Positions 7,661 to 59,667 of a DNA stretch of 64,000 nucleotides are shown piece after piece. How positions within the stretch are numbered: the first letter of the stretch is position 1; every line of letters begins with the position of its first letter. Source of the stretch: Planktothrix pseudagardhii (GTDB lineage: Bacteria > Cyanobacteriota > Cyanobacteriia > Cyanobacteriales > Microcoleaceae); NCBI RefSeq assembly GCF_904830925.1, contig NZ_LR882967.1, forward strand, positions 3,682,106 through 3,746,105, written 5' to 3'. The translations under genes were made by a program, and so were the position numbers. The notes under the pieces were generated by a model that was not told the DNA's origin, searched no databases, and saw only the letters and a program-made list of their open reading frames with translations.

Positions 7661-8050
7661 TCAGGTTTGAGTAGGATCAACAAAGGTGTAAAGATTATTC
7701 CTACAAACATTAATCTGGTAGTCTTCCAAGATTTGCCCATCAGCAAATACAGCACGAATATCGTAAAAACACCGAGCCGAGTTTGGATCAGAGAATAAAA
7801 CTTGAACACTTTGCCCTGTTGGTAACACATCGGTTTGCAAAATGTCGTATTCCCAATTATCAAGGCTCGAATCAGACAGATAGAGTTCTGTTACCATTTT
7901 ACTACTGTTATTGGCAATCACAAAATCCGACTTATCAGCGATCGCGCGCTGACTATGAAACATCACGAGGGGAAGAACTAAGAAGGCTGTAAATAATCGA
8001 CTGATGGGTAAGGTTGAGGGTAAAGGAATCTGGAACATTTCTAATTGCAC
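7661..8050 (-). CDS. secreted hypothetical protein (signal peptide)
   Basis: 129 aa; N-terminal hydrophobic h-region LFTAFLVLPLVMF; no known domain. Confidence 0.45.
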   Translation of the reverse strand: MQLEMFQIPLPSTLPISRLFTAFLVLPLVMFHSQRAIADKSDFVIANNSSKMVTELYLSDSSLDNWEYDILQTDVLPTGQSVQVLFSDPNSARCFYDIRAVFADGQILEDYQINVCRNNLYTFVDPTQT

Positions 8051-8378
8051 CTCAGCATCTGTTCAAAACTGGGAAATTCCAGTCTAGTCAAGGTTTAATG
8101 ATCGGCAATTTATCAAAATCAAGAGAGAATAATTGGAGACTAGAGGAAGATCCCGTTAAGATAAGATATAAATCGAGAAGAAGTGAGGAATTAATTTCCT
8201 TGCTTCTTCTCAATGTAGAACCCAAGATAACGCCTATCTACAGGTACGTTACACTGGAGAATAAACCGAGAAAAACCGTTTGAGTTGGAGTCAGAAGGAA
8301 TTCTCAAATCTAAAGTTAAGGTAGGATCGGGAAAAAGTCGGGAAGGTATCGCATTTCAAGGGAAAGATTAAACTCACC

Positions 8379-10748
8379 ATGAAAATTTTGTTGATCGAAG
8401 ATGATCCAATTTTTGCATCAATGTTGGTACAATCTTTAACCAACCAGCGTTATATTGTCGATCAAGCTGAAGATGGTCAAATGGGGTGGGAATATGCTCA
8501 AAGTACCACTTATAACTTAATTGTCATTGATGTAGGATTACCTAAATTAGACGGTATTACGCTGTGTCAAAAATTACGTTATCAAGGCAGTACCATCCCG
8601 ATTTTATTAATAACCGCTAAAGACGGAACAAGCGAGCGCATCCGAGGTTTAGATGCGGGTGCTGATGATTATTTGATTAAACCGATTGATATTGCCGAAT
8701 TTCAAGCGAGAGTTCGGGCATTATTACGACGAGGTGAAGTTTCCCATTCTTCCATCTTAGAAATTGGAAATTTACAACTAAATCCGGTAACTTGTCAAGT
8801 TCATTATGCCCATCAACCCATTACCTTGACCCCCAAAGAATATAGTTTATTAGAATTATTAATGCGAAACCCCGCACGGGTTTTTAGTCGGGCTGAACTG
8901 ATTGAATATTTGTGGAGTTTTGATGATCCACCCCAAGAAGAAAGCGTTAAAGCTCATATTAAAGGACTGAGACAAAAATTAAAAGCCGTTGGTGCGGCGG
9001 AGTGGATTGAAAATGTTTATGGGTTGGGTTATCGTCTCAGTGCAAAACTCCAAACAACGCCCTCTGTTTCTGCTGATTCTCCTCAGCCCACAATCGAAAT
9101 TTCCCTAGAACAACAGTTTAACCAAGCTAAAGAAAAACTCTGGAATCAATATCAAGATTTATTAATAGAACGGTTAGCGATTTTACAACATTTAGCGATC
9201 GCCTTAACCACAAACACTCTGCTTCCTTCCCTGCGTAACGCCGCCGAACAAGCCGCCCATAAATTAGCCGGAGTTCTAGCCATGTTTGACCTAGAACAAG
9301 GGACAGAAATTGCTAAAAAAATTGAACAGAATTTAGAAGGAGATCAGGCCCTAACCTTTGAGCAAATCCAACTGTTACAATCCTATATTCACGAATTAGA
9401 ACAGTTACTTCCTCACTCAATGTCTGAAACCGATCAATCTCCTCTGCCTTTCCCGACCTCAACCCCCCCAAATTTGGAAATAAATCTTTCCCCCAATGTG
9501 AGTTCCTTACCTGAATATTCAGTTTCCGAGATTTCCCCTCGCCTGTTATTAATTGATTCCGATCCCGAATTCGGAAAAGCTCTGCAATCTTTAGCAGATT
9601 CTATGGGGTTAGCTTGGCAACAAATCCCCACCTTAGCAGAAGCAAAAACTTGGTTAAACCTCAATACTCCAGAGGTTGTTGTTTTCAATGACTATCCTGA
9701 TATTAAAACCGAAGACCGATCCCAACTCATTATAGATTTAGCCAAACGCACTCCTCCCATTCCCGTCTTAGTCCTAACCTCCACAGAAGGTTTAATGGAT
9801 CGAGTCACAGTAGCTCGTGCAGGGGGTCGCAGAATCTTCATTAAACCTGTGACCCCAACCCAAATTTGGGAAGCCACCAGCCAACTCTTACAAGCCTCTC
9901 CGCACTCCAAAGTCAATGTTTTGGTTGTCGATGACGACCCCTTATTTTTAGCCACCTTGCGTCCCGTTTTAGAGCCTTGGAGGATAAGAATGACGGGACT
10001 CAGCGACCCCCTGCGGTTTTGGGAGGTTTTGAAATCTGTCTCACCGGATTTATTAATTTTAGATGTGGAAATGTCCCCGGTTAGTGGGATCGAACTTTGC
10101 CAAACCGTTCGGGCTGATCCCCATTGGCAAGGATTACCCATTGTGTTTCTCACGGCTCATTGTGATAGTAAAACCATTCAACAGGTATTTGCGGCGGGTG
10201 CGGATGATTATGTCAGCAAACCCGTCATGGGGCCAGAACTATTAACTCGCATTACTAACCGTTTAGAACGGACTCGATTATTACAAACATTATCTACAAA
10301 AGATCCGATTACAGGGTTAGCAAATTATCTCCAGTCTAGCCAAGAATTAGAACAACAAATCCAGAAGTGTCAACAATTAGAACAACCGTTTTCTTTGGGA
10401 GTATTAACTTTTAGTCAACTGCATAACATTAATCTTGAATATGGGCATTTGATTAGCTATCAAGTTTTGCAACGGTGGGGGCGTTTATTTCAAGGAATGA
10501 CTACGGTTGGAGTTGAAACGATTGGATATTGGGGAAATGGGGAATTTGTGGTGGGAATGCCGGGGTTAACTCAAGCAGAAGCTCAGGAACACCTATCTGA
10601 TGTCTTGATTTCTCTTCGACAGCAGGTGTTTACTACTTTGGAAGGACAACGGTTTCAGGTCGTTTGTGAGGTAAAAATTACAGAATTTCCTACCCAGGGA
10701 CAAACATTACAACAATTATATCAACAGGTTCATCATCGTAATGGATAG
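8379..10748 (+). CDS. multidomain response regulator: REC + OmpR-type winged helix + HPt + pseudo-REC + REC + degenerate GGDEF
   Basis: 789 aa. N-terminal REC (phospho-acceptor D in IVIDVGLP) and wHTH (trans_reg_C). An HPt-like helix with AHKLAG. A second receiver lacking the Asp (VVVFNDYPD). A third, canonical REC (LLILDVEM). A C-terminal GGDEF fold in which the active-site motif reads GNGEF. Confidence 0.8.
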   Translation: MKILLIEDDPIFASMLVQSLTNQRYIVDQAEDGQMGWEYAQSTTYNLIVIDVGLPKLDGITLCQKLRYQGSTIPILLITAKDGTSERIRGLDAGADDYLIKPIDIAEFQARVRALLRRGEVSHSSILEIGNLQLNPVTCQVHYAHQPITLTPKEYSLLELLMRNPARVFSRAELIEYLWSFDDPPQEESVKAHIKGLRQKLKAVGAAEWIENVYGLGYRLSAKLQTTPSVSADSPQPTIEISLEQQFNQAKEKLWNQYQDLLIERLAILQHLAIALTTNTLLPSLRNAAEQAAHKLAGVLAMFDLEQGTEIAKKIEQNLEGDQALTFEQIQLLQSYIHELEQLLPHSMSETDQSPLPFPTSTPPNLEINLSPNVSSLPEYSVSEISPRLLLIDSDPEFGKALQSLADSMGLAWQQIPTLAEAKTWLNLNTPEVVVFNDYPDIKTEDRSQLIIDLAKRTPPIPVLVLTSTEGLMDRVTVARAGGRRIFIKPVTPTQIWEATSQLLQASPHSKVNVLVVDDDPLFLATLRPVLEPWRIRMTGLSDPLRFWEVLKSVSPDLLILDVEMSPVSGIELCQTVRADPHWQGLPIVFLTAHCDSKTIQQVFAAGADDYVSKPVMGPELLTRITNRLERTRLLQTLSTKDPITGLANYLQSSQELEQQIQKCQQLEQPFSLGVLTFSQLHNINLEYGHLISYQVLQRWGRLFQGMTTVGVETIGYWGNGEFVVGMPGLTQAEAQEHLSDVLISLRQQVFTTLEGQRFQVVCEVKITEFPTQGQTLQQLYQQVHHRNG

Positions 10749-52739: not shown

Positions 52740-54623
52740 ATGCGATTGTCATCTTCTCCATCCAGTGGTTTATCCCTACTCACGGCTCGAATTCTAGCTC
52801 TAGTTGTCACTGCTAATTTCTGTTTAGTTATTTTTGATTTAAGCTACATAAAATTTCGGGAATATTATTTAAAAATAGATCAACATCAACAACAATCTGA
52901 AAATACGCCTCAAAATCAATATTTACAACAAATTGATCAACTTGAAAAAACGATTAATCAATTTGGGATTGAATCTCAACAAGTTAAACTAGCCTTAGAG
53001 CAGATTCAGACATCCAGTGTAGAACTATTCATTAAAAATCCTCCCTTTCCGGTTCTTAATTCATCTGGAACCTTAGCTGAAATTCAAAAACGTTTTCAAA
53101 ATCAGGTCAAGGCTAATAATTTTCAGCAAGCCTTAGAATTGTTTTGGAGTCCTGTTTATTTTAATCAGAAAACCTGGAAAAAGCAATTACTTTTTTTTAA
53201 TCAAAATATTCGATTTTTAATTATTTTTTATGAACCTAGTTTAACCTATGACCTGATTAAAGGGGTTGAACCGGATCGACTTAGCCAAAACTATTTAAGA
53301 AAAGTTTCTGAATTAAAGGTTAATTTAAAATACAACGGATTAAATCACCCTAAATCTCAGAGTTTATTGAAAGAAATTCGTCAAATTAGCATAGAACTGA
53401 TTGACCGTAATTATCCCTTACAATTACAACCTAATTTAGGGAAATTAACGGAAATTAAATATCGAATTATTGATCATATTTATGGTCGAGATCCCCAATT
53501 TACAACTCGACTGACACCCACCTTAAAATTTTTATATCAAATTAAACTCTTAAATTTTTTAGCCCCAGAGTTAATTTGGTCAGATCGATCCGCTAAACAA
53601 GCGTTTAACACTTTTTGGAGCCTTGAAAACTTAGAACAATATGGATGGGAAACTGAACTTCAATTTTTTGAAGCTGAAATGCAAGAGTTAATGCAGTTAT
53701 TTTATTTTCGACATTTAGGAATAGATGGTGAATTTGTTAACCGATTTTGGTTGATTGATTTACCTTGGATTACCTTATTCTTTTTAACATTTTTAATGGA
53801 GATCTATGCCCTTCGTCGTCGTCAACCGGAGTTGACATTAAGGGAAGCTATTTTAAAATTATGGTATTATTTGTTTTTATTAATTCCTAAATTATTGTTC
53901 TTGCGGTTTATTTCAGCCGTTTATCACTTGAATCGAGCTAATTTTCCTAGATTACAGCCTACTATTGATTATCTAAAATTAAAATTTATCTATAGTTTTG
54001 CTCAAGAATTAATTCAAGTTTTGGTCAATCAAGGCGTTAATCAAGTTCAATCTTTTGTGAAAAAAGGAGCGATTAAAAATTTAATCGGTAATCCTGCTTC
54101 CTCCTATCAAGCCCTCGATTTTGTAGACCTGACTCAACAAGTTCCCCCAGGAATTCCTAATCGGATTGTTGAACTTACAATTACTCAGGTTTTACCCAGT
54201 ATTCATCCTGAATTAGAAGCTTATGTACATTATCAAGTTTCTCAATCCATCCAAAAATCCCCCATTTATAAAGGGTTAAATAAAATTCCAGGTGTTCGTC
54301 ATCTTCCCCAACAAGTTGCTAATAATGTAGCCCAAAAAATTGCGATCGCTATTTCAGAAAACCCTAAAAAATCTCTGGAGGAAGGTAAAAATAAACCCCC
54401 TGATTTTATAGCTATGCAGTTACAAAAACAATTAACTCAAAAGTTTGTAGATCAGTTACGCATAGAATTAAATAAAGAACAGATTATTGATGATGTCGAA
54501 ACGATTTTAGTGAATTGGCTAGACAAACTAAAATCCAATCAAGTTAAAGATTTAGAAGCAAAATCAAGTATTAAGCCAGCTAATATTGAAGTCATGAAAC
54601 AGATTTCTCCGACTCCAGATTAA
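52740..54623 (+). CDS. large hypothetical membrane-anchored protein
   Basis: 627-aa ORF with N-terminal TM helix and internal TM pair; no recognisable domain; probably co-transcribed with 51759-52721 (18-bp gap). Confidence 0.5.
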   Translation: MRLSSSPSSGLSLLTARILALVVTANFCLVIFDLSYIKFREYYLKIDQHQQQSENTPQNQYLQQIDQLEKTINQFGIESQQVKLALEQIQTSSVELFIKNPPFPVLNSSGTLAEIQKRFQNQVKANNFQQALELFWSPVYFNQKTWKKQLLFFNQNIRFLIIFYEPSLTYDLIKGVEPDRLSQNYLRKVSELKVNLKYNGLNHPKSQSLLKEIRQISIELIDRNYPLQLQPNLGKLTEIKYRIIDHIYGRDPQFTTRLTPTLKFLYQIKLLNFLAPELIWSDRSAKQAFNTFWSLENLEQYGWETELQFFEAEMQELMQLFYFRHLGIDGEFVNRFWLIDLPWITLFFLTFLMEIYALRRRQPELTLREAILKLWYYLFLLIPKLLFLRFISAVYHLNRANFPRLQPTIDYLKLKFIYSFAQELIQVLVNQGVNQVQSFVKKGAIKNLIGNPASSYQALDFVDLTQQVPPGIPNRIVELTITQVLPSIHPELEAYVHYQVSQSIQKSPIYKGLNKIPGVRHLPQQVANNVAQKIAIAISENPKKSLEEGKNKPPDFIAMQLQKQLTQKFVDQLRIELNKEQIIDDVETILVNWLDKLKSNQVKDLEAKSSIKPANIEVMKQISPTPD

Positions 54624-54708
54624 GCGATTTGATTAATAATTTTTAATATTTATTTGTGCCGTAGTATGCAGCTTACACAGCCTAGATGTAAACGGTTTTA
54701 AATTGGAA

Positions 54709-54733
54709 GTTTGACAGCCTGTCTTTTGACAAC
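54709..54733. promoter_or_regulatory. operator-like motif AGTTTGACAGCCTGTCTTTTGACAA upstream of petJ (candidate BlaI/PetR-type repressor site)
   Basis: contains the dyad GACAGCCTGTC and a direct repeat TTTGACA; an almost identical 25-mer occurs at 56691-56715. Confidence 0.55.
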
Positions 54734-54788
54734 CAGAAATCTGTTTTGCACGATAGAAGGATTGATTTAATTTCCTCAGAGGAGAATA

Positions 54789-55130
54789 GTGATGAAAAAG
54801 AAGTTAATCTCAGCCTTGTTAATGATTGCAGTGGCTGTTTTAATTGTTGTTCCTAGTGCATTGGCTGGAGATGTAGCAAATGGAGGTAAAGTATTTTCAG
54901 CAAATTGTGCATCTTGTCATGCTGGTGGAAAAAATCTAGTCAATGCTAAATATACCTTACAAAAAGCAGATCTCGAAAAATATGGAATGTATAGTATTGA
55001 GGCAATCACAGCCCAAGTTACAAACGGGAAAAATGCCATGCCAGCTTTCAAAGGTCGTTTAAAACCAGAACAAATTGCTGATGTTGCGACTTATGTGTTG
55101 TCTCAAGCCGATCAAGGTTGGCCAAAGTAA
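54789..55130 (+). CDS. petJ: cytochrome c6
   Basis: 113 aa; signal peptide; heme motif CASCH; conserved c6 signature GKNAMPAF. Confidence 0.85.
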
Positions 55131-55162
55131 TATCAATTAATCCCAAATTTTAATACCCTTAA

Positions 55163-55210
55163 ACCTCTCAAACCCTTGGATCAATTAAAGGGTGAGAGGT
55201 GTATCTTTAT
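55163..55210 (+). terminator. rho-independent terminator after petJ
   Basis: ACCTCTCAAACCCTT...AAGGGTGAGAGGT extended stem followed by a T-rich tail. Confidence 0.5.
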
Positions 55211-55301
55211 TAGATCTTCATGTCGAAACATCACCAATCCTTGATTTCTGTTCAAATCATCCACTAAACTAACGAATTAGTTGTATTTCTCTTAATTCCT
55301 T

Positions 55302-55724
55302 ATGGCCCCTTTGCCAGATTATCGTCCTCGCCAACTGTCTCTCGGCCCATTAGAAACGGAAATCCTAGAAATCGTTTGGGACTTGGGTATTGCCACGGTT
55401 AAAGATGTTCATGAACGAATTTTAGCTGACCCTAATCGAGAATTAGCTTATACTTCAGTCACAACAGTTTTACGCCGTTTAACCGATAAAGGTTGGTTAA
55501 CCTGTAATAAACAGGAACGTGCTTTTTATTGGCAATCTTTAGTCACCCGTGAACAAGCGCAGGCTATTTTGGCTTATGATCGTTTAAATCGATTTTTAGC
55601 GATTGGTAATCCTGATGTAGTGGCTTCTTTTGCCGATAGCTTGGATACAGCAAGTTTAGAACAAATTGATGCCATTGCCTCACGTCTGGATGCCATTCGT
55701 CGTCAACGGGAGGGACAACAATAA
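55302..55724 (+). CDS. petR: BlaI/MecI/CopY-family transcriptional repressor (PetR-like)
   Basis: 140 aa; winged-helix penicillinase-repressor fold (LGPLETEILEIVWDLG...YTSVTTVLRRLTDKGWL); adjacent to petJ and to an M56 protease gene. Confidence 0.7.
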   Translation: MAPLPDYRPRQLSLGPLETEILEIVWDLGIATVKDVHERILADPNRELAYTSVTTVLRRLTDKGWLTCNKQERAFYWQSLVTREQAQAILAYDRLNRFLAIGNPDVVASFADSLDTASLEQIDAIASRLDAIRRQREGQQ

Positions 55725-56569
55725 TGCACTTAATGATTATTTTATTAGCACTCTTAGTGGCGCTGGGTTTACGAGTGATGCCTTTACCTCAAGGAAGAAG
55801 TTGGCATCAACGTTGGCAAAAATCTCTATTTTTATTTGTTTGTCCTCCGTTAGTATTGTTGATGACGGCGTTGGCGGTGTTGTCGATGGGGACAAAAGGG
55901 GAAATGTTAGGACTCCAAGCGAGTTGGTTTAGTTATTTACTAGCTGTGGGGTTTGTCGCTTGGGGACTGTTCACAGGGGTTCAGTTACTGAGTCAATTGT
56001 GTCAGTCTCAACACCGAATTGATTGTCTGTCTCAACAGGTGGTGATGGGAAAAACAGCCCGAATTTTACAAGATGATTTTCCCTACAGTGCTCAAGTTGG
56101 GTTTTGGCAACCGGAATTAGTGGTGAGTCGAGGATTATTAGAAACCTTAGATGACCTCCATTTAGAAGCCGTTATTGCCCATGAACAAGCTCATTTAAAC
56201 TATCGAGATACCTTTTGGTTTTGTATTTTAGGTTGGTTAAAAACTTTCACAGTTTGGCTACCCAATACAGAGAATCTATGGCAAGAATTACTGTTATTAA
56301 GAGAAATGCGGGCTGACCGTTACGCAACCCAAAAAGTCGATCCGTTAGTGTTAGCAGAATCTTTATTATATCTTGCCAAAGCTCCGTTTAAATCTCCAAC
56401 TTATTGCAATTTATCGTTTAGTTGTTCGATTCGGAGTAGTCGTTTAGGAGAGCGAATCGATGCTATTTTAGCGGAAGATTCTGATACTTTAACCTGGGGA
56501 TGGTGGATGTGGATGTTACTGTTCTGGGTTTGTTTACCTTGGATTACAGTTCCTTTTCATTATTCTTAA
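55724..56569 (+). CDS. petP: BlaR1-type M56 family membrane metalloprotease (PetP-like)
   Basis: 281 aa; 4 TM helices with HEQAH zinc motif; start overlaps the petR stop (ATGA). Confidence 0.7.
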   Translation: MHLMIILLALLVALGLRVMPLPQGRSWHQRWQKSLFLFVCPPLVLLMTALAVLSMGTKGEMLGLQASWFSYLLAVGFVAWGLFTGVQLLSQLCQSQHRIDCLSQQVVMGKTARILQDDFPYSAQVGFWQPELVVSRGLLETLDDLHLEAVIAHEQAHLNYRDTFWFCILGWLKTFTVWLPNTENLWQELLLLREMRADRYATQKVDPLVLAESLLYLAKAPFKSPTYCNLSFSCSIRSSRLGERIDAILAEDSDTLTWGWWMWMLLFWVCLPWITVPFHYS

Positions 56570-56577
56570 ATTTAGGA

Positions 56578-56616
56578 AAGAGGGAACAGGGAACAGGGAA
56601 CAGGGAACAGGGAACA
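56578..56616. repeat. heptamer tandem repeat AGGGAAC x5 (reverse complement of the TGTTCCC family)
   Basis: direct reading. Confidence 0.9.
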
Positions 56617-56690
56617 GAAAATAGAGGATAGTAAAAAGTGATTAGCTACCCGATAAAGGATTTTTAGCTAACATTTTTGAATTTCCTATA

Positions 56691-56715
56691 AGTTTGACAA
56701 ACTGTCTTTTGACAA
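56691..56715. promoter_or_regulatory. second copy of the operator-like motif AGTTTGACAAACTGTCTTTTGACAA
   Basis: 22/25 identical to 54709-54733; ~73 bp upstream of the ATG at 56788. Confidence 0.55.
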
Positions 56716-56787
56716 GAATAACATGAGGGTGAGAAATCAAGACCAGAACAAAGGAAAAACACTTTCTTGATATAGGGTCTTGATTTC

Positions 56788-57276
56788 ATGAACTGGCAAT
56801 TTAATCTGAGAAAAGACAAAAACGTTGTGCTGGGATTTTCTCTACTATTGGGAATGGTTTTGAGTCATTTTACAGGATTGGGTCTATTATCTGTCCAAGC
56901 CGATGAACAACAGCACCATTCCTCTTCTGGTCATCATAAAACCGTGACGATTCCTCCGGGTCAACCCATTCCAACCGTTGATTTAATTGTCCATCCTGAT
57001 GCCCGTCAAGGATGGAATTTAGAGTTAAAATTAACGAATTTTAAATTAACACCTGAAAATGTCAATCAAGCCATGAGTTCCTATCAAGAAGGACACGCTC
57101 ATCTTTATATTAATGGCAAAAAAGTAACCCGAATTTATGGAAATTGGTATTATCTCCCCGAATTGCCACCAGGACGCCATGAAATTCGAGTGGGTTTAAC
57201 AGGAAATGGTCATGAAATGTTAATGGTTCATGATCAAGAAATTGGAGATACAGAAATTATCGAAGTTCAAAAATAA
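56788..57276 (+). CDS. secreted His-rich protein, putative metal-binding; candidate member of the same regulon as petJ
   Basis: 162 aa; signal peptide; HHSSSGHH stretch and further His pairs (HAHLY, NGHE). Confidence 0.5.
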   Translation: MNWQFNLRKDKNVVLGFSLLLGMVLSHFTGLGLLSVQADEQQHHSSSGHHKTVTIPPGQPIPTVDLIVHPDARQGWNLELKLTNFKLTPENVNQAMSSYQEGHAHLYINGKKVTRIYGNWYYLPELPPGRHEIRVGLTGNGHEMLMVHDQEIGDTEIIEVQK

Positions 57277-57405
57277 GAGGGGTGTAGGGACACAGGAAGA
57301 GAGGATAACATCATTGATACTCTCTACTTCACTTTGTTCCCCCCACACCCTAGCCTCTAACCCTTAGAGGCGATTTCAACGCTGAGTTTGTTGGAAAAGG
57401 ACAGC

Positions 57406-59667
57406 TTACTCTGTAACCGCAGAAGACCGACGGCGACGGCGACGAATAATGGGTTCACCCGGTTCATGGTCTGAGTCAGAAGACTCTTCTGAGAAATCCT
57501 CATTATCGGTTTCCAAAATAGAAAATTCTGGGGTGGGTTCCGGTTCTTCAACTTCTGGTGTTTCTCGTTCCAGAATAATCCGCTCAGAAATCGACCGTTC
57601 GGGGATAATCCGTTCAGAAATCGTCCGTTCGGGAATAATCCGCTCAGAAATCGACCGTTCGGGGATAATCCGTTCAGAAATCGACCGTTCGGGGATAATC
57701 CGTTCAGAAATCGTCCGTTCAGGAATAATCCGTTCAGAAATCGTCCGTTCAGGAATAATCCGGTCTGTGACCCCTATGGAAATCCCAGGAATGTCGGGTT
57801 CGTCATAGTCTTCATCGATGAGGGTTGAGGGAGACACGGGGGCTTCCCCAGGGGAACGAACGGTAACAATCACCGAACGAGGGTTTTTCACCTGTTGATG
57901 GGAGAGCATCAAGGGAGAAATCCCCATCAACGCATACATTTCCTGCTCTTCTGGGGTCATTTCCACCGAAACAACTTCCGGGGGTTCCACAGGCGGTTTA
58001 ATAATTTCGGATTTTGTGGGACGACTGCGTTCACTGAATCCGCTTCGGGCGGAGAACCCTTCACTGAATCCCCCCATATCCGAACGAGACTCGCCATATT
58101 GAACCGGAGGAGACATCCGCAGGGAAGTCCGGGGGGTTTCTTCATCTCGCGTTAACGAATCCATATCCCGAATTCGACGACGGCGGCGACGGGCGTTACT
58201 GGTTCCAATATCTTGATAACTGGGATGGTTGAGCAGTTCTAACTCTTGGAAATTATTAGACGCATCAAATTCAACGACTTCGGGTTCTTCCCGAGAAGTG
58301 GGTTCATAGGGGGAAATCGGAGTGCGTAAACTAGGTCGTTCTGGGGATTCACTACTGGCTGGTGGCGGAACAATCCGATTATTGGTGAGGACAACTCGTT
58401 CGGCGGGGGGTTCTCCGATTTCGAGTTCAATTTCTCCCGGTAGATGAACGGTATGACCTAAACCGCCACAGGTGGCACAGGTTCGCCCAAACAACTCATA
58501 AATATTTTGGCCTTGGCGTTTACGGGTTAATTCTACTAACCCTAATTCCGATAATTGAGCAATTTGGGGTCGGGCTTTATCGGCTTTGAGAACTTTATTA
58601 AAATGTTCCAAGACTTGTAATTGATCTCGCCGGGAATCCATATCAATGAAGTCCACAATAATCACCCCAGCAATATTGCGTAACCTCAATTGACGGGCAA
58701 TTTCCGTGGCGGCTTCACAATTTGTCCATAACACGGTTTCTCGTGATGTCGCCGAACGGGTAAAGGAGCCAGAGTTAACATCAATCACCGTTAAAGCTTC
58801 CGTCGGTTCAATGATAATATAACCGCCTGATGGTAAATCAACTCTGGGTCTTAAGGCTTCTCGAATGGCTGCATTAACTCGGAAATACTCTAAAATCGGA
58901 ATTCGTTCCCGGTGGTGATCAATTAAGACCCCTTGAGGCGCTTTTCCGACGCTCCAATTCATCAAATGTTGTTTGACCCGCTTAACCGCCGGGCTGTTAT
59001 CCACCACAATTCGGTTAACTTCGGTGCTGTACATATCTCGCAGCACCCGTTGAATAAAGTCATTATCTCGATTTAACAAAGCCGGAGGGCGGGAAGATTG
59101 AGCTTCTTGTTGAATCACTTCCCATTGTTTTTGCAGACTTTCTAAATCTTCTAAAATCGCATCTTCAGCCATGCCTTCGGCTTCTGTCCGCACCAATAAC
59201 CCCATTCCAGAGGGTTTAATTAAAATTGCTAAAGCCCTTAAACGGTTGCGTTCTGTTTCTGAACGAATGCGCCGAGATAAATTTACCCCCCTGCCATAAG
59301 GCATTAACACTAAATACCGTCCGGGTAAGGAAATATTTCCAGTTAACCGGGGGCCTTTAGTTCCCGTCGGTTCCTTCATCACCTGTACCAGCACTTTTTG
59401 CTGGGGGGTTAATAATTCGGTGATGGAACCAGACGTTCGTTTTAATCGTAATGGCCCTAAATCGGAAACATGGATAAATCCATTGCGCTCAGGATCTCCA
59501 ATATTGACAAATGCTGCATCAATCCCTGGTAGGACATTTTCAACGATACCCAGATAAATATCACTGACTTGGTGATTTCCGGTCGCTACAACCAGTTCTT
59601 GAATTTGATCTTCTGAAAAAACCGCCGCGATGCGTTGTTGTTCTGCGATAATAATTTGTTTTGACAT
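57406..59667 (-). CDS. rne: ribonuclease E
   Basis: 753 aa; N-terminal S1 + RNase E/G catalytic core (DNaseI-like, Zn-link CxxC); C-terminal noncatalytic region ends in RRRRRSSAVTE (cyanobacterial Arg-rich nonapeptide) and contains seven or eight ERIIPERTIS decapeptide repeats. Confidence 0.85.
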   Translation of the reverse strand: MSKQIIIAEQQRIAAVFSEDQIQELVVATGNHQVSDIYLGIVENVLPGIDAAFVNIGDPERNGFIHVSDLGPLRLKRTSGSITELLTPQQKVLVQVMKEPTGTKGPRLTGNISLPGRYLVLMPYGRGVNLSRRIRSETERNRLRALAILIKPSGMGLLVRTEAEGMAEDAILEDLESLQKQWEVIQQEAQSSRPPALLNRDNDFIQRVLRDMYSTEVNRIVVDNSPAVKRVKQHLMNWSVGKAPQGVLIDHHRERIPILEYFRVNAAIREALRPRVDLPSGGYIIIEPTEALTVIDVNSGSFTRSATSRETVLWTNCEAATEIARQLRLRNIAGVIIVDFIDMDSRRDQLQVLEHFNKVLKADKARPQIAQLSELGLVELTRKRQGQNIYELFGRTCATCGGLGHTVHLPGEIELEIGEPPAERVVLTNNRIVPPPASSESPERPSLRTPISPYEPTSREEPEVVEFDASNNFQELELLNHPSYQDIGTSNARRRRRRIRDMDSLTRDEETPRTSLRMSPPVQYGESRSDMGGFSEGFSARSGFSERSRPTKSEIIKPPVEPPEVVSVEMTPEEQEMYALMGISPLMLSHQQVKNPRSVIVTVRSPGEAPVSPSTLIDEDYDEPDIPGISIGVTDRIIPERTISERIIPERTISERIIPERSISERIIPERSISERIIPERTISERIIPERSISERIILERETPEVEEPEPTPEFSILETDNEDFSEESSDSDHEPGEPIIRRRRRRSSAVTE

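Follow-up and report, generated by a model that had tools for sequence, protein, structure and literature searches.

In a 64,000-nucleotide stretch of the Planktothrix pseudagardhii genome (assembly GCF_904830925.1, contig NZ_LR882967.1, positions 3,682,106 to 3,746,105; hereafter the window, in whose numbering all coordinates are given), the cytochrome c6 gene petJ is followed by the genes for a BlaI/CopY-family regulator and a membrane protease, and then by the gene for a 162-residue exported, His-rich protein that we call X162. We hold with high confidence that regulator and protease are the copper-responsive PetR/PetP switch and that the DNA box found upstream of both petJ and X162 is the PetR box described in print. 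None of this is new: petJ, the box and both proteins of the switch have been known since 2021. What is new is the second target, X162, which by sequence comparison is well supported as a member of the PetR regulon. Taken as a whole, the region is probably a PetR/PetP switch with two targets, one of which, X162, would be an extracytoplasmic copper handler made when copper is low. The features concerned are these:

54708–54732, + strand: PetR box 1, activator (petJ) type, AGTTTGACAGCCTGTCTTTTGACAA; motif match, found at this position ahead of petJ in 22 distinct promoters.
54749–54754, + strand: predicted -10 element for petJ, CACGAT, which fits xAxxAT and follows TTGACA by 17 nt.
54789–55130, + strand: petJ, cytochrome c6 with a signal peptide; NCBIfam NF045930 (Cytc6PetJCyano), 159.4 bits against an equivalog cut-off of 135.
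55302–55724, + strand: petR, BlaI/CopY-family winged-helix regulator; Penicillinase_R (PF03965), 98.6 bits against a cut-off of 22.6, E = 3.8e-28.
55724–56569, + strand: petP, M48/M56 membrane metalloprotease of 281 residues without a C-terminal sensor domain; called from Pfam, motif and topology.
56691–56715, + strand: PetR box 2, of the same type and orientation, AGTTTGACAAACTGTCTTTTGACAA; within the 218-bp spacer between petP and X162.
56732–56737, + strand: predicted -10 element of the X162 promoter, AGAAAT, 17 nt after the TTGACA at 56709–56714.
56788–57276, + strand: the X162 gene, for a 162-residue exported His-rich protein; called from sequence features, homologues and a structure model.

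The identity of the switch follows from the petJ equivalog score, from the 65% identity between the window's PetR and Slr0240, the PetR of Synechocystis sp. PCC 6803, and from the families, topology, HEXXH motif and overlapping start of PetP. The petJ product, already recognized as cytochrome c6 in the preliminary description of this DNA, has a hydrophobic N-terminus (residues 1–32) and carries its CxxCH motif as CASCH; the gene was called from GTG 54789, with the ATG at 54792, behind a GAGGAG ribosome-binding site, the likelier start. PetR aligns with Slr0240 over 137 of 140 residues (85% positives), the reference sequence being the one that Garcia-Canas et al. give in Fig S7 of their bioRxiv paper (10.1101/2020.07.31.226407). 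CopY was ruled out as an alternative identity, the CopY/TcrY equivalog model giving 44 bits against a cut-off of 122. PetP scores 27.4 bits for PF01435 (cut-off 20.3) and 25.6 bits for PF05569 (below its cut-off of 31), and its HEXXH motif reads HEQAH (residues 153–157). It has hydrophobic segments at residues 1–24, 32–57 and 71–90, plus an aromatic C-terminal segment, WGWWMWMLLFWVCLPWITVPF, that was read by eye as the fourth transmembrane helix and lies under the hydropathy threshold used; a Met pair sits in the loop between helices 2 and 3 (SMGTKGEMLGL). The petP ATG overlaps the petR stop codon by one base (TAATG, 55722–55726), and slr0240 and slr0241 of Synechocystis have the same start/stop overlap, with Slr0241 sharing the Pfam families and topology of PetP (bioRxiv 10.1101/2020.07.31.226407). 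The earlier assignment of a BlaI-family regulator and an M56 protease with overlapping start and stop, arranged as in the Synechocystis switch, is thus borne out. So is the earlier remark on plastocyanin: no petE gene was found in the 64-kb window, where a petE probe gave nothing below E = 2.6; the probe works, since it detected petE in 17 other fetched loci. An Rfam scan of the region gave no known RNA element at E ≤ 0.1.

The 25-mer AGTTTGACA(G/A)(C/A)CTGTCTTTTGACAA occurs at 54708–54732 and 56691–56715, both times on the + strand, with no third match in 64 kb at up to 3 mismatches (0 expected from 100 shuffles). The preliminary description had located the second site exactly and the first one nucleotide too far downstream (54709–54733); its gap of 56 bp between box 1 and the petJ start (GTG 54789) stands, whereas the 73 bp given before X162 (ATG 56788) should be 72. 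Each copy holds, as had been pointed out, a GACA-N3-TGTC dyad plus two direct TTTGACA repeats. In box 1 the TTTGAC(A) repeats begin at 54710 and 54725, the GAC core begins 76–79 bp before the petJ start, where a box of the petJ type is expected at about 75 bp, and the downstream TTGACA (54726–54731) occupies the place of a -35 hexamer. In petE and petJ promoters alike, PetR sites have a core, GAC-N5-GTC, that is conserved without exception; the direct repeat TTTGAC-N9-TTTGAC belongs to petJ and not to petE promoters (Garcia-Canas et al., bioRxiv 10.1101/2020.07.31.226407; PNAS 2021). The slr0601 promoter, bound by PetR in electrophoretic mobility shift assays, reads AAGTTTGACGGGCTGTCTTTTGACCC (bioRxiv 10.1101/2020.07.31.226407). 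Both window boxes read TTTGAC-N5-GTC-N-TTTGAC, an exact fit to the published petJ-type motif. The candidate operator put forward earlier is therefore correct as a shared operator but not a new one: its sequence is that of the PetR box of petJ-type promoters. The degenerate motif TTTGACN5GTCNTTTGAC has only these two perfect matches in the window, and two further matches with 3 mismatches are at chance level; a window scan for the petE-type dyad TGACANNNTGTCA at 1 mismatch likewise gave extra matches at chance level only.

Loci of X162 from 80 different cyanobacterial species, the best 80 of at least 581 matches. Taxa sampled were Planktothrix, Okeania, Trichodesmium, Lyngbya, Dapis, Anabaena, Fischerella, Scytonema, Hyella, Stanieria-like, Gomphosphaeria, Prochloron, Leptolyngbya JSC-1, Elainella, Thermosynechococcaceae, Acaryochloris and others. 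Loci were scanned for TTTGACN5GTCNTTTGAC with up to 2 mismatches on both strands (865 kb × 2, 1.7 Mb).

A PetR box stands before the X162 gene or its operon in 65 of these 80 loci. X162 is the next gene after the box in 45, mostly 50–80 nt from the start of the longest open reading frame (ORF), and in a further 20 the box heads a co-directional cluster containing X162 and stands before petJ or a gene for a secreted TPR protein. Among the 75 boxes found, 72 are on the coding strand and closely precede X162, petJ, the TPR gene, a gene for a DsbD_2–ferric-reductase fusion or the partner gene of that fusion; the three strays all have 2 mismatches. In an alignment of promoters from other species (43 distinct ones of X162, 22 of petJ), the sole conserved feature outside the box, in both gene classes, was xAxxAT exactly 17 nt after the downstream TTGACA. 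Conservation of the box and of a -10 at a constant distance from it, between diverging flanks, is also the pattern of petJ promoters, and we conclude from the comparison that X162 is very probably a PetR-activated, low-copper gene. No canonical sigma-70 promoters and no strict intrinsic terminators were called near the window boxes, the absence of the former being expected of an activator-dependent promoter. Transcription is predicted to start at about 54760 for petJ and about 56744 for X162.

The direction of control needs to be weighed, since the preliminary description spoke of a repressor at this site. A PetR site over the -35 of petJ goes with activation, and one between the -35 and -10 of petE with repression (bioRxiv 10.1101/2020.07.31.226407). 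With a TTGACA at the downstream end of the box, a 17-nt spacer and an xAxxAT-type -10, the window sites belong with the former, and the label does not carry over. Were the box at 56691 nonetheless to repress in BlaI-like fashion, X162 would be made when copper is available, as a copper store or buffer. It is true that BlaI and CopY proteins are usually repressors, that PetR represses petE through the same GAC-N5-GTC core, and that the poor predicted -10 leaves the promoter assignment uncertain. Yet petE-type sites lack the TTTGAC repeats and sit between -35 and -10, whereas activator-type sites (petJ, slr0601) lie over the -35; the X162 and petJ promoters share box sequence, orientation, -10 spacing and distance to the start codon; and in about 20 species X162 and petJ lie in one co-directional cluster behind a single box. 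We therefore regard repression of X162 as very unlikely.

Even less probable, to the point of being hardly credible, is that the second box is a functionless copy, either a duplicated promoter fragment or a dispersed repeat. Two copies that are 23/25 identical and about 2 kb apart are what a local duplication could give. But their likeness stops exactly at the borders of A-AGTTTGACA..CTGTCTTTTGACAA, beyond which the flanks differ; there are no more copies in 64 kb; and the box is kept before orthologues in Oscillatoriales, Nostocales, Pleurocapsales, Leptolyngbya-like cyanobacteria and Acaryochloris, again with diverging flanks. Almost no boxes occur elsewhere in the 1.7 Mb scanned.

The X162 protein has a basic N-terminus, one hydrophobic segment (13–36), the sequence SVQA|DE followed by a His-rich stretch, and 11 His in 162 residues. 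It is laid out as a Sec-type signal (1–38), a disordered His-rich linker (39–50) and an Ig/FN3-like beta-sandwich (51–162), the last modelled with confidence (predicted local distance difference test, pLDDT, above 95 for residues 50–162). Across the family D71, H103, H105 and H142 are invariant and H50 and E101 nearly so, and the 30 residues ahead of the domain contain a median of 5 His (79 members). The suggestion made earlier, of a second and uncharacterised regulon member that might bind metal, has thus gained in substance, with the box before the family in most loci and with its His-rich tail and invariant His. The closest homologue is that of Planktothrix mougeotii (95%). Many relatives hold 2 to 10 tandem copies of the domain.

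Against Pfam and NCBIfam, X162 matches no family above threshold. DUF4399 (PF14347), the name borne by some UniRef relatives, was rejected: X162 does not match it even at E ≤ 1 (gathering threshold 28 bits). Eight of 20 family members match it (best E 1e-3), and an 801-residue relative with four domains reaches 32.8 bits in sum, although none of its stretches passes alone; by these scores, the X162 family is at most a distant relative of DUF4399. DUF2846 (PF11008) was also rejected, with 18.5 bits over 33 residues against a gathering threshold of 34.3; all 20 members tested show sub-threshold matches, and the likeness is a shared beta-hairpin motif, not membership. We found no sequence-family or specific fold match of X162 to CopC, PCuAC, YcnI, CusF or MbnP. 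A search of the literature up to 2026, covering few subscription journals, gave no report of the family as a PetR or copper-starvation gene. X162 represents a large family not described in the literature searched.

In about 27 of the 80 loci X162 is no more than 6 kb away from petJ and/or petRP, and its recurrent neighbours include petJ (22 loci), the secreted TPR protein (22), petR (17) and petP (15). Twenty loci have a gene for an approximately 410-residue membrane protein, a fusion in which DsbD_2 (PF13386, with GSFGHCAGMCGP at the N-terminus) is joined to a haem domain of the ferric-reductase kind (PF01794) that resembles MsrQ and MamZ, and 15 have one for an exported protein of 170–220 residues, of no family, whose mature N-terminus reads AH[KT]VE. 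This AH[KT]VE protein is the partner of the fusion, usually encoded after it, and in many cyanobacteria the two share a PetR-box operon of their own. The modules occur in the orders box-X162, box-fusion-partner, box-X162-fusion-partner and box-petJ-TPR-X162-fusion-partner. In 12 loci of Okeania, Trichodesmium and Dapis the upstream half-site reads TATGAC in place of TTTGAC (AAGTATGACA...TGTCTTTTGACATT), and 10 of these have a gene for a divergent prokaryotic cytochrome b561 (PF01292) that is transcribed away from X162, the box lying in the spacer that separates them. The window contains no homologues of the DsbD_2–ferric-reductase, P174/P222 or TPR partners, and X162 thus stands alone at the Planktothrix locus.

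These neighbours allow another reading, in which X162 serves cytochrome c6 as an accessory to its maturation or function, handling haem or iron or passing on reducing power, with the TPR protein and the DsbD_2–ferric-reductase membrane protein of the same operons as its partners. The order box-petJ-TPR-X162-DsbD_2/ferric reductase, seen in about 20 loci, speaks for it, as does the Pfam name of DsbD_2, 'cytochrome c biogenesis protein transmembrane region'; the ferric-reductase domain could keep haem iron reduced, and the TPR proteins weakly match the CcmH/CycH TPR domain, although below the cut-off. It accounts poorly for the 45 of 80 loci, the window among them, in which X162 has its own box outside the petJ operon, for the same box before MbnP, HMA, TonB-receptor and ExbB genes that are unconnected with cytochrome c maturation, and for a non-photosynthetic bacterium of high GC whose CopC/CopCD/multicopper-oxidase cluster includes a homologue. 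Because X162 is mostly found apart from petJ and in copper-specific company, we rate a role in the service of cytochrome c6 lower, as rather unlikely.

The preferred reading, that X162 is an extracytoplasmic handler of a redox metal, draws on four sets of facts: X162 is an exported protein whose flexible tail is rich in His and which has conserved His, Asp and Glu residues; it is encoded beside two unrelated transmembrane haem electron carriers (the ferric-reductase domain and cytochrome b561); MbnP, HMA and TonB uptake genes also stand behind the PetR box; and a two-domain homologue lies in a CopC/CopC-CopD/multicopper-oxidase cluster. That homologue is 41% identical per domain and keeps the His residues; its gene (8001–9029 of a non-cyanobacterial 1.08-Mb contig of 64% GC, without a PetR box) comes directly after three multicopper-oxidase genes, CopC and a CopC-CopD fusion. 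For X162, copper is the likeliest metal, and the protein may well bind or handle it, although we would put this particular claim a little short of an even call.

Several points weigh against this reading. The regulation of X162 in Planktothrix is a prediction from comparison, and of the genes in the regulon found by RNA-seq in Synechocystis (petE, petJ, slr0601, slr0602) none is described as resembling X162 (bioRxiv 10.1101/2020.07.31.226407). The box was not found in 15 of the 80 loci, some of them truncated upstream; the 80 loci are the best of at least 581 matches and the metagenome contigs are partly redundant, so that the counts are of non-independent events; related species share ancestry, and ORF starts were set mechanically. 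The -10 of the window's X162 promoter is weak (AGAAAT, with G at position 2). The X162 fold matches generic FN3/PKD domains only, and the predicted mature N-terminus is Asp in the window protein and His in many relatives. Of about four informative contexts among distant relatives only one is copper-related; in the eight multi-domain contexts examined it was the one clear copper cluster, the rest being on short contigs or telling little, which makes it anecdotal. Finally, the petJ/TPR/DsbD_2 neighbourhood could point to cytochrome c maturation.

With X162 as a copper handler and PetR as its activator, the window would work as follows. When copper is present, the membrane protease PetP would degrade PetR, as shown in Synechocystis and transferred here by orthology. 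When copper is scarce, PetR would accumulate and bind the two TTTGAC repeats around the GAC-N5-GTC dyad; as the box overlaps the -35, bound PetR would activate transcription there, with box 1 driving petJ and box 2 the monocistronic X162 gene. X162 would then bind copper outside the cytoplasm, in the periplasm or thylakoid lumen, and aid its acquisition or allocation while it is limiting. In other cyanobacteria it may act together with the DsbD_2–ferric-reductase membrane protein or with cytochrome b561.

How far does the box reach beyond these genes? We made an unbiased scan of metagenome contigs with the exact box AGTTTGACN5GTCTTTTGAC, which returned at least 136 boxes on at least 120 contigs, partly redundant. 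Among the matches listed, the next gene after the box was petJ (42), the DsbD_2–ferric-reductase fusion (19), a TonB-dependent receptor (12), a small His-rich GLTT-repeat membrane protein (8), ExbB (7), PepSY_TM (7), X162 (6), an ATP-binding cassette (ABC) component (6), the AH[KT]VE protein (5), an outer-membrane MetA-like porin (4), an MbnP-family copper-binding protein (3; TIGR04052, 296 bits, cut-off 140), a DsrE-like protein (2) or an HMA protein (1). Several of these loci have boxes facing both ways between divergent TonB-receptor and exbB genes. The GLTT-repeat proteins, found after PetR boxes in at least 8 loci, have about 110–130 residues, GxxSIG repeats and His-rich ends. A Microcystis-like petE–petJ locus, which occurs at least 9 times, has two equally oriented boxes in tandem, spaced by 73 bp, ahead of petJ; beyond them lies petE, which is divergent from petJ. 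Over the 80 species loci and the at least 120 metagenome contigs, the box is nearly confined to promoters of one coherent set of genes. The preliminary description had allowed for a generic repeat present at many unrelated sites; across the 200 fetched loci the motif does not behave like one.

Together, the members of this broader set of genes behind PetR boxes, not described before, have the look of a regulon for copper acquisition. Reductases of the fungal Fre type reduce Cu(II) so that it can be taken up, and PF13386 is also called the UreH-like transmembrane domain, after a nickel permease. By analogy with the two, a role of the DsbD_2–ferric-reductase fusion as a reductive copper importer is plausible. 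We tentatively raise the further possibility, which we would not yet call likely, that PetR, beyond switching two electron-carrier genes, serves as the master activator of a regulon for copper acquisition in cyanobacteria, one in which X162 is a periplasmic Cu(II)-binding protein feeding such an importer. The importer would then consist of a ferric/cupric-reductase haem domain fused to a UreH-like DsbD_2 channel (HCxxMCGP motif); alternatively, X162 would work with a cytochrome b561 partner. TonB receptors, ExbB, PepSY and MbnP modules would serve as alternative front ends.

Two further elements in the window bear on where transcripts end:

55163–55199, + strand: probable petJ terminator, a stable hairpin followed by a U-rich tract; folding energy -21.5 kcal/mol, z -3.3.
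57279–57371, + strand: two stable hairpins between the X162 gene and the convergent minus-strand gene at 57406–59667; -45.7 kcal/mol, z -4.1.

None of 200 shuffles was as stable as the hairpin at 55163–55199, which the strict terminator scan did not call; given this hairpin, petJ is probably monocistronic. The hairpins at 57279–57371 close the X162 transcription unit, which makes X162 monocistronic in the window. Upstream of petJ, a 627-residue ORF (52740–54623, + strand) matches no Pfam or NCBIfam family and has the same place beside petJ in two related Oscillatoriales/Planktothrix loci. Right after the petP stop, 74 bp before box 2, the heptamer AGGGAAC is perfectly repeated in tandem 5.3 times (56581–56617). 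The convergent 753-residue ORF (57406–59667, - strand) resembles RNase E/G by reading of its N-terminal sequence, and near its 3' end carries a 30-nt tandem repeat of 6.6 copies (57566–57762) that encodes repeated ERIIPERSIS/ERTIS decapeptides.

The literature up to 2026 gives the PetR regulon as petE and petJ, plus slr0601/0602, and a genomic-context study of petRP found comB and petJ to be the sole moderately conserved neighbours. A conserved box before the X162 family in most cyanobacterial lineages suggests that the copper-starvation gene set is larger than described. If the PetR-box genes are truly PetR-activated, cyanobacteria would have a copper-starvation regulon comparable to that of CRR1 in Chlamydomonas, and how they take up copper at low concentration could be put to the test on named genes. 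CtaA is, according to a 2025 review, the sole copper importer of cyanobacteria to be well characterised, and the idea of PetR as master activator would, if true, supply candidates for the long-missing high-affinity import route. The finding also has practical interest. Planktothrix is a bloom former, and its blooms are often treated with copper algaecides.

The closest known system is PetR/PetP of Synechocystis, which the window matches in protease families, topology and overlapping start, in box sequence and in the place of the box over the petJ -35. A linkage of petJ to petRP was reported for 13 of 169 genomes (bioRxiv 10.1101/2020.07.31.226407). The window differs in its organism, in the direct adjacency of petJ and in containing no petE. 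The additional targets also differ, as described: slr0601 and slr0602 in Synechocystis, X162 here. The slr0601-slr0602 genes resemble X162 as genes of unknown function behind a petJ-type box (AAGTTTGACGGGCTGTCTTTTGAC), and they are copper-repressed and bound by PetR in vitro (bioRxiv 10.1101/2020.07.31.226407). Slr0601 is small, with two transmembrane helices and cytoplasmic ends, and Slr0602 is a coiled-coil protein of low conservation (bioRxiv 10.1101/2020.07.31.226407), whereas X162 has a cleavable signal, a single beta-sandwich domain and high conservation; it is by these published descriptions that we set them apart. Matched likewise by description only, the GLTT-repeat His-rich membrane proteins fit Slr0601 better than X162 does.

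PetRP resembles BlaI/BlaR1 and MecI/MecR1 of Staphylococcus and Bacillus, in which a BlaI-family regulator is removed by an M56-type membrane protease encoded next to it, and the PetR box resembles the operators of BlaI, MecI and CopY (Enterococcus), which are dyads with TGTC/GACA-like half-sites. Unlike BlaR1 and MecR1, PetP has no beta-lactam sensor domain, and its signal is copper. PetR lacks the C-terminal Cys motif of CopY and both activates and represses (bioRxiv 10.1101/2020.07.31.226407).

For X162 itself, the closest functional analogue is ZepA (All3515) of Anabaena PCC 7120. Like X162, ZepA is exported and has a flexible His-rich N-terminal tail; its folded domain bears a conserved three-His cluster, to which we liken the conserved His of X162, and it is induced by metal starvation and acts in acquiring the scarce metal, as X162 may do (PMC10957091). 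ZepA differs in its H-X2-9-H-F/Y-H motif, its PEP-CTERM anchor, its repression by Zur and its metal, zinc (PMC10957091). We considered homology between the two and rejected it, as hhalign gives a probability of 0.1% and both the ZepA motif and PEP-CTERM are absent from X162. The resemblance is one of function by analogy.

Low-copper modules are also known elsewhere, among them ycnK-ycnJ(CopC-CopD)-ycnI of B. subtilis, MbnP/MbnH and the CRR1 regulon of Chlamydomonas. Their shared logic is that copper scarcity brings on replacement by cytochrome c6, extracytoplasmic His-containing copper binders and a membrane importer, and in yeast and algae the low-copper response also includes a cupric/ferric reductase. 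The PetR-box genes would carry out a response of this kind with other protein families and another regulator, the copper transport in their case being putative.

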